NCBI RefSeq assembly: GCF_044647545.1
Contig: NZ_CP172818.1
Source of the DNA: Escherichia coli
GTDB taxonomy: Bacteria > Pseudomonadota > Gammaproteobacteria > Enterobacterales > Enterobacteriaceae
Length of the DNA stretch: 64,000 nt
Strand: one strand, 5' to 3'
Both the position numbers and the translations under genes were made by a program. The notes beneath the pieces are model-generated. The model searched no databases. It was not told where the DNA came from and saw only the letters and a list, made by a program, of their open reading frames with translations. Position 1 is the stretch's first letter, and every line of letters starts with the position of its first letter. Positions 21,926 to 22,203 of the stretch are shown piece after piece.

Positions 21926-22203
21926 TTACCCAAATAGCGCCGCGTGAGTTCCAGTTCTCTCAAATCGTAAAAGTTTATCGGTAAGTTTGTAAATCAGGAT
22001 CCAGTCCGGTTCGACATGAGCATCGCGATAACCTTTCCATGAACCTTGCAGCGGGTGGTCTTTATAAACAGCTGGAAGCAGTAAAGTATTATTGATAAGA
22101 GCGTCATAAGATATTTCAATTTATTCATATCCTTATGACGCTTTTGTGCAAGTTTTACATCCTTTGAAAATTGTCCCGAGTATTCAATATCCCTTTGAAT
22201 CAT
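21926..22203 (-). pseudogene. yafQ: YafQ (RelE/ParE-family mRNA interferase toxin) with apparent -1 frameshift
   Basis: N-terminus MIQRDIEYSGQFSKDVKLAQKRHKDMNKLKYLMTLL is in frame, then frame breaks near 22096 (single-base loss in TT run); downstream frame still encodes ...NNTLLLPAVYKDHPLQGSWKGYRDAHVEPDWILIYKLTDKLLRFERTGTHAALFG*. Confidence 0.75.

Follow-up and report, generated by a model that had tools for sequence, protein, structure and literature searches.

What is to be made of a chromosomal toxin gene that has lost its reading frame beside an antitoxin gene that is whole? This is the state of dinJ-yafQ in the Escherichia coli DNA analysed here, a stretch of 64,000 bp (contig NZ_CP172818.1 of assembly GCF_044647545.1) that we call the window. 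As the lesion is an exact difference from the reference and not a statistical pattern, chance is not the issue, and the question is whether it reflects an error or a real allele. The explanation we favour, at a probability of about 0.88, is that yafQ is a genuine inherited pseudogene, made by a 1-bp deletion of single origin that was spread by descent and recombination, with dinJ left as an orphan in what would be the ordinary decay of a toxin–antitoxin (TA) pair. The features of the locus are as follows.

21926..22203, minus strand: yafQ pseudogene, 278 nt long and so one short of the usual 279, opening with the ATG at 22203 and closing with the original stop at 21926-21928
22099..22101, minus strand: position of the frameshift, where the TT of codon 35 is down to a single T, placed by alignments with MG1655, AR_0013, O157, 2015C-4944 and QL57EC
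21994..22203, minus strand: residual 69-aa ORF, YafQ residues 1-36 plus 33 out-of-frame residues (SIILYCFQLFIKTTRCKVHGKVIAMLMSNRTGS)
21926..22096, minus strand: out-of-frame remnant, YafQ residues 37-92, from minus-strand frame translation
22206..22466, minus strand: dinJ, encoding an intact 86-aa antitoxin and repressor of the RelB/DinJ family, from the ORF listing and NCBIfam and PDB matches
22483..22498, minus strand: LexA box CTGAATAAATATACAG (coding strand, CTG-N10-CAG), unchanged from MG1655, a short way past the -10 hexamer
22504..22532, minus strand: putative sigma-70-like dinJ promoter, -35 TTGTCG, 17-nt spacer, -10 TACAAT, recognized by consensus match only and the same as in MG1655

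The window and the MG1655 locus (NC_000913.3) align with a single indel at about 98.5–99% nucleotide identity. On the coding strand, the sequence is ACG CTT CTT ATC in MG1655 and ACG CTC TTA TCA in the window, the affected codons being Leu35-Leu36 (CTT CTT > CTC TT); viewed on the plus strand, AAGAAGC has become AAGAGC at 22099–22101 (about 22100). A sequence-only reading of this DNA had proposed that a single base was lost from a TT run, which the alignment bears out on the coding strand; it had put the break near 22096, correctly as to the frameshift but 4 nt away from its actual position. Six-frame translation and the ORF listing likewise agree with its statement that yafQ is frameshifted after 36 codons, leaving a 69-aa ORF and the remainder of the gene in another frame. 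The native N-terminal 36 residues of this ORF are MIQRDIEYSGQFSKDVKLAQKRHKDMNKLKYLMTLL (minus-strand frame translation), and the rest of YafQ, INNTLLLPAVYKDHPLQGSWKGYRDAHVEPDWILIYKLTDKLLRFERTGTHAALFG, lies in a different frame that runs to the original stop at 21926. No reference YafQ with the sequence of the 69-aa ORF was found. The yafQ ATG (22203) lies 2 nt past the dinJ stop codon, and yafQ contains no homopolymer of five or more bases, the deletion site itself being a dinucleotide.

In its position between dpaA and yafL, its operon layout, its promoter and its LexA box the locus is like dinJ-yafQ of K-12 (b0226-b0225; PDB 4Q2U, 4ML0, 4ML2), from which it differs in the T missing from codon 35, in having the nuclease part out of frame, and thus in being an antitoxin-only locus. 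Synteny identifies the broken gene as yafQ, since it lies directly downstream of dinJ, between dpaA and yafL, in the gene order of MG1655. The family models do not recognize its product: the 69-aa protein scores 27 bits against NCBIfam TIGR00053 (YafQ; cut-off 87.25), covering only profile positions 1–35 of 92, and 21 bits against the RelE/StbE model TIGR02385 (cut-off 27.9). With the base restored, YafQ scores 115.3 bits against TIGR00053 over profile positions 2–91 and aligns to the YafQ of PDB entries 4ML2 and 4Q2U over 92/92 residues, with 90/92 the same as in K-12 (substitutions Y12F and P42L). The frame downstream of the deletion differs from MG1655 only by one synonymous change and by P42L, which the intact allele of strain AR_0013 shares.

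In the catalytic apparatus proposed for YafQ (PMC4652777), the general base is His50 or His63 and the general acid His87, with Asp61, Asp67 and Phe91 as further residues; mutagenesis points to Arg83, His87 and Phe91, and in K-12 a transposon that removes only residues 71–92 already relieves toxicity (both PMC4996492). Every proposed catalytic residue lies beyond residue 36, outside the frame of the yafQ start codon, in keeping with the earlier claim that the C-terminal catalytic region is out of frame. Given that synteny is that of yafQ while the YafQ-family score falls short and the catalytic residues are not in frame, we class the gene as a yafQ pseudogene and not as a functional member of the family. 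Rescue through an internal start or through recoding was considered and ruled out: the C-terminal frame has no ATG, GTG or TTG past its upstream stop, and at the junction ACG CTC TTA TCA there is neither a slippery heptamer of the form X XXY YYZ, nor a long run of A or T, nor a homopolymer. From the placing of the catalytic residues after the break, the published mutagenesis and the failure to find a rescue route, we infer that the YafQ toxin is dead and that no ribosome-dependent mRNA interferase would be made. The profile scores and the catalytic residues beyond the break thus support the earlier description of a toxin-dead TA locus that keeps its antitoxin gene, though the 69-aa product could have residual activity, for example in binding DinJ.

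The yafQ frameshift is an inherited allele, and at the level of annotation it is already known, as a RefSeq pseudogene. Complete E. coli genomes (5,426, a set that does not contain the window's own strain) were searched with a 45-mer placed so that each 28-base seed word spans the deletion. The exact deletion allele was present in 157 of them, always on the chromosome and 100% identical over the 45 bases, and the 46-mer counterpart of the intact site was present in 3,138. The carriers were isolated from humans, cattle, pigs, chickens, dogs, wild birds and wastewater, and include a strain named ST648 as well as IMT16316, which is named in ST648 papers. Annotation was inspected in 12 carriers (FDAARGOS_497, 'ST648', TUM1586, Z30, SX48, LS45, Z226-1, EC332, CRECJHTL34, EC476, 2016C-3878 and SMS-3-5), and in 12/12 PGAP labels the gene 'yafQ ... 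frameshifted', a pseudogene; the RefSeq loci are ECSMS35_RS01180 in SMS-3-5, FH07_RS05305 in strain ST648 and EGY17_RS14540 in FDAARGOS_497. SMS-3-5, a reference genome of 2008 that we take to be Sanger-sequenced and to belong to phylogroup F and ST354, is the same as the window over 541 bp of dinJ-yafQ, and FDAARGOS_497 is the same over a 711-bp query. When the base was put back in silico, the resulting haplotype was found in no genome, the best matches still being the 711-bp deletion carriers at 99.9%, and the nearest intact allele found, that of AR_0013, is 6 SNPs plus the indel away within the core region described below. A literature search found no paper reporting this yafQ frameshift.

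Published surveys place dinJ-yafQ in phylogroup F and not in G or B2 (PMC6896753). About 2,100 of the 5,426 complete genomes are without dinJ-yafQ, matching only ~60 bp of flank (window 21850–21910), which agrees with the published absence from phylogroups B2 and G. In IAI39, which is rearranged in this part of the chromosome, the locus was not found at K-12-like coordinates.

The deletion is embedded in a tract that is uniform among the carriers compared, as follows.

21418..22674, no strand assigned: haplotype core of 1,257 bp, comprising the 3' part of dpaA, the yafQ pseudogene, dinJ and the promoter region; free of SNPs in the 12 compared carriers

The 12 compared here comprise the window, ten carriers over 6.3 kb and SMS-3-5, which was compared separately, with FDAARGOS_497 counted through its 711-bp identity. 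Between the window and the RefSeq carriers of the same allele (SMS-3-5, ST648 and FDAARGOS_497) dinJ-yafQ is the same base for base, and only the surrounding gene content differs. In the background represented by TUM1586, LS45, EC332 and SMS-3-5, SNPs relative to the window start sharply at 21417 and 22675, giving the core recombination-like boundaries, and the flanking genes differ at ~2% of bases (16/768 in yafJ, 15/579 in lpcA, 16/750 in yafL). The right-hand (yafL) allele of this background is also that of the toxin-intact AR_0013. Gene content varies too: some carriers have rayT between yafL and flhA and the window does not; the Flag-2 cluster is complete in SMS-3-5, TUM1586, LS45, EC332 and EC476 and deleted in the window; and the tRNA-Asp site is occupied by a type VI secretion cluster in FDAARGOS_497, is empty in SMS-3-5 and has yafT-ykfM-yafU in the window. 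Since the core has 0 SNPs while its flanks (~2%) and gene content differ, these data are most simply explained by a mutation of single origin, after which the recombination usual in E. coli exchanged either the flanks or the 1.26-kb tract itself and left a mosaic. The 1-bp deletion in codon 35 would then have arisen once, on the dinJ-yafQ haplotype of 'ST648', SMS-3-5 and their relatives, and descent together with local homologous recombination would have placed that haplotype in several chromosomal backgrounds.

What remains at the locus is a complete antitoxin gene. DinJ scores 83.7 bits against NCBIfam TIGR02384 (cut-off 45.65), with residues 1–84 on profile positions 1–85, and its residues 1–86 align to DinJ in PDB 4ML0 (4ML0_A) and 4Q2U (4Q2U_A). 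It is the same as K-12 DinJ at 83/86 residues, the differences being I69V, D70G and V71I; residues 1–68, which include the ribbon-helix-helix DNA-binding part, are unchanged, and V71I is the sole difference between the window's DinJ and that of the toxin-intact AR_0013. The protein is WP_000729708.1, which is also the DinJ of 12/12 carriers inspected. From the promoter to the dinJ ATG there is only one SNP relative to MG1655, lying between the Shine-Dalgarno sequence and the start codon. The full 86-aa ORF and a LexA box the same as that of MG1655 uphold the sequence-only reading, which had called both intact. By its CTG-N10-CAG box the dinJ locus is a predicted member of the LexA (SOS) regulon; according to PMC4996492, LexA binds the dinJ promoter (there citing Ruangprasert 2014), yet induction has not been seen.

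With the promoter, the LexA box and DinJ residues 1–68 all unchanged, the locus most likely still makes DinJ as an autoregulated orphan antitoxin, and would act as a ribbon-helix-helix repressor of its own synthesis, encoded by a single gene. Ribosomes that start at the yafQ ATG would in addition make a 69-aa peptide that shares its first 36 residues with YafQ and has no catalytic residue. In O157:H7 Sakai dinJ is induced at entry into stationary phase (PMC2241611), and as the Sakai lineage carries a yafQ frameshift of its own, this lends indirect support to the view that a toxin-dead dinJ locus can stay transcribed.

That frameshift is one of three further yafQ lesions that we traced from length variants among the locus matches, a sample that is not systematic. 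In O157:H7 strain 7409, yafQ has a 2-bp deletion at codon 8 (GAATAC > GAAC, window ~22180), is annotated 'frameshifted' and lies beside an intact dinJ; a seed-spanning 45-mer finds this O157-type allele in 295 of the 5,426 complete genomes, mostly O157:H7. In 2015C-4944 a 6-bp deletion removes the yafQ ATG, PGAP using an upstream start inside dinJ, and in QL57EC a 9-bp in-frame deletion is combined with a stop at Lys48 and extra missense changes (annotated 'internal stop'); dinJ is intact in both. Together, the two frameshift alleles account for at least 452 of the roughly 3,325 complete genomes that have the locus. The chance that four lesions would all fall in yafQ and none in dinJ is (279/540)^4, about 0.07, which is only weakly improbable.

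The pseudogene of the O157:H7 type resembles that of the window in being an independent frameshift of yafQ with dinJ intact, fixed in a successful lineage; it differs in lesion, position and haplotype (DinJ WP_000729705.1) and leaves 7 native residues. A wider parallel is ccdO157 (Mine et al. 2009), which PMC7167474 and PMC2654758 describe as a chromosomal type II TA system at a fixed position that degenerates by inactivating mutations, although it belongs to another family, CcdB being a gyrase poison and YafQ an mRNA interferase of RelE fold. More generally, the TA loci on the E. coli chromosome occupy conserved sites and degenerate via inactive-toxin mutants (PMC7167474, PMC2654758). In K-12, deletion of dinJ causes a cold-sensitive growth defect at 18 °C (PMC4996492). 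Addiction accounts for decay that begins with the toxin, since loss of the antitoxin is harmful while the toxin is active, and loss of the toxin costs nothing; the likely cause of the present lesion would therefore be ordinary decay of a chromosomal TA pair, toxin first owing to addiction. The match in PEC414 (NZ_CM168006.1 3672515-3672771) is confined to the distal 36% of the query. Here dinJ and the 5' end of yafQ appear to be missing together, possibly as a later stage of decay or as a one-step loss of both genes.

Of the alternatives, the one that survives best, though we consider it unlikely, is that the loss was adaptive or a domestication, with YafQ selected against, or DinJ kept as a stand-alone regulator acting on cspE and RpoS, in successful lineages such as ST648 and O157:H7. 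In its favour, yafQ has been lost on at least four independent occasions, always beside an intact dinJ, and two of the alleles are frequent (157 and 295 genomes); however, addiction predicts a toxin-first order even under neutrality, and the high frequencies may mirror the clonal success and the sampling of ST648 and O157. DinJ has a toxin-independent regulatory role, repressing cspE and thereby lowering RpoS (PMC4996492, citing Hu 2012), and the stationary-phase induction of dinJ was seen in Sakai (PMC2241611), that is, in the lineage of the 2-bp deletion. Against a general need for DinJ stand PEC414, from which dinJ appears to have been deleted with the 5' end of yafQ, and the roughly 2,100 genomes without the locus, which imply that DinJ is dispensable in much of the species. 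The presence of the dead allele on diverged flanks is compatible with recombinational spread. The carriers have 0 SNPs in dinJ or the yafQ remnant, which leaves no power to detect purifying selection on dinJ and makes neutral decay and selection inseparable.

The sequence-only reading had offered 'genuine adaptive loss' as one of two possibilities; that the loss is genuine is supported by the 157 genomes and the linked haplotype, while its being adaptive is only a possibility, as the carriers, with 0 SNPs in the core, are too alike to reveal selection. A bolder version would have yafQ recurrently and specifically eliminated, and DinJ retained by selection and domesticated as a stress regulator in its own right (through cspE and RpoS), in successful pathogenic lineages such as ST648/SMS-3-5-like strains and O157:H7, with the dead allele now spreading by recombination, and this we regard as somewhat more doubtful still.

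It is far less probable that the 69-aa peptide, YafQ residues 1–36 with a hydrophobic, cysteine-containing tail, has acquired a new function, for instance as a non-toxic co-repressor with DinJ. The native start codon and the 2-nt spacing after dinJ have been kept, so the peptide is probably translated; but the tail is an accident of frame, no family model matches past residues 1–36, and the breaks at codon 8, at the start codon and at codon 48 in other lineages lead to unrelated products.

An error of sequencing or assembly, under which the isolate would have an intact 92-aa yafQ and the indel would be an artefact, has very little left to recommend it. Single-base indels are the commonest assembly error, and the sequence-only reading had named a homopolymer sequencing error as its other possibility; yet the site is a TT dinucleotide in a gene without 5+ homopolymers, the exact allele recurs in 157 independent complete genomes including SMS-3-5, it goes together with 6 private SNPs that set it apart from the nearest intact allele, and no genome has the haplotype with the base restored. 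On these grounds we consider an error effectively excluded for practical purposes. Equally hard to credit is a programmed -1 ribosomal frameshift or transcriptional slippage that restores some full-length YafQ as a low-dose toxin, for although the frame after the break remains open with very few changes, its cleanness is due to the youth of the allele (0 SNPs in the 1.26-kb core) and the junction lacks any slippery heptamer or long A/T run.

An anti-addiction role against plasmid-borne yafQ was also considered and set aside, as 72,556 plasmid records gave 16 matches and no natural plasmid partner was seen among them. By their names and sizes, the 16 are F' plasmids of laboratory K-12 strains, replicons of 0.4–4.8 Mb labelled as plasmids, and records of low identity; two plasmid records from chicken meat match dinJ-yafQ at only 82–85%. 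The plasmid-labelled matches are probably chromosomal DNA carried on F-primes, or records with a wrong label, and not natural TA modules.

Taken by itself, the yafQ lesion is a real but ordinary lineage-fixed pseudogene, and matters little. It does mean that a working DinJ-YafQ pair should not be assumed in studies of persistence, stress or phage defence that use ST648, relatives of SMS-3-5 or O157:H7-type strains; a transcriptome paper on O157:H7 from 2007 treats the locus as a working TA pair (PMC2241611). A survey of TA systems in 950 genomes reports YafQ as highly prevalent in phylogroup F, sampled as ST648, with a minimum toxin length of 30 aa (PMC10790755), and at that minimum the survey probably took the 69-aa remnant for a toxin. 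Presence/absence surveys that set the lower limit for ORFs at 30 aa will include the remnant, and toxin repertoires may be over-counted. The remaining interest is population-genetic and lies in recurrent toxin-specific loss at appreciable frequency: with at least 452 genomes carrying a frameshift allele, yafQ lends itself to asking, in natural populations, whether decay that starts with the toxin is neutral or selected.

Several observations concern the surroundings of the locus. The window aligns with a 50-kb stretch of FDAARGOS_497 from 15421 onwards only, at 99.9%, and the best complete E. coli genome for positions 1–25000 (LR-28, in pieces) matches at 98.9%; the window thus combines an ST648-type right-hand side from 15421 with a K-12-like aspV region. 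Between tRNA-Asp and yafV lies an islet of low GC (37.8%) at 13075–15490, with three ORFs of 261, 155 and 95 aa that gave no NCBIfam, PADLOC or Pfam matches. It was considered as a small gene pair of interest and dropped, its position and ORF layout being those of K-12 yafT-ykfM-yafU. With a type VI cluster in FDAARGOS_497, nothing in SMS-3-5 and this islet in the window, tRNA-Asp (aspV) is a site of variable integration in the strains that have this allele. On the other side of yafQ, a remnant of the Flag-2 lateral-flagella cluster (23377–25912) consists of a 5'-truncated flhA (fhiA-like, 601-aa ORF) overlapping lafU, as in K-12. Beyond it, the dinB operon (25983–28246) has four full-length ORFs, namely dinB (351 aa), yafN (97 aa), yafO (132 aa) and yafP (150 aa), and as the neighbouring yafN-yafO TA pair is thus of full length, the loss is specific to yafQ. 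In the record of strain 'ST648' dinB is annotated as frameshifted.
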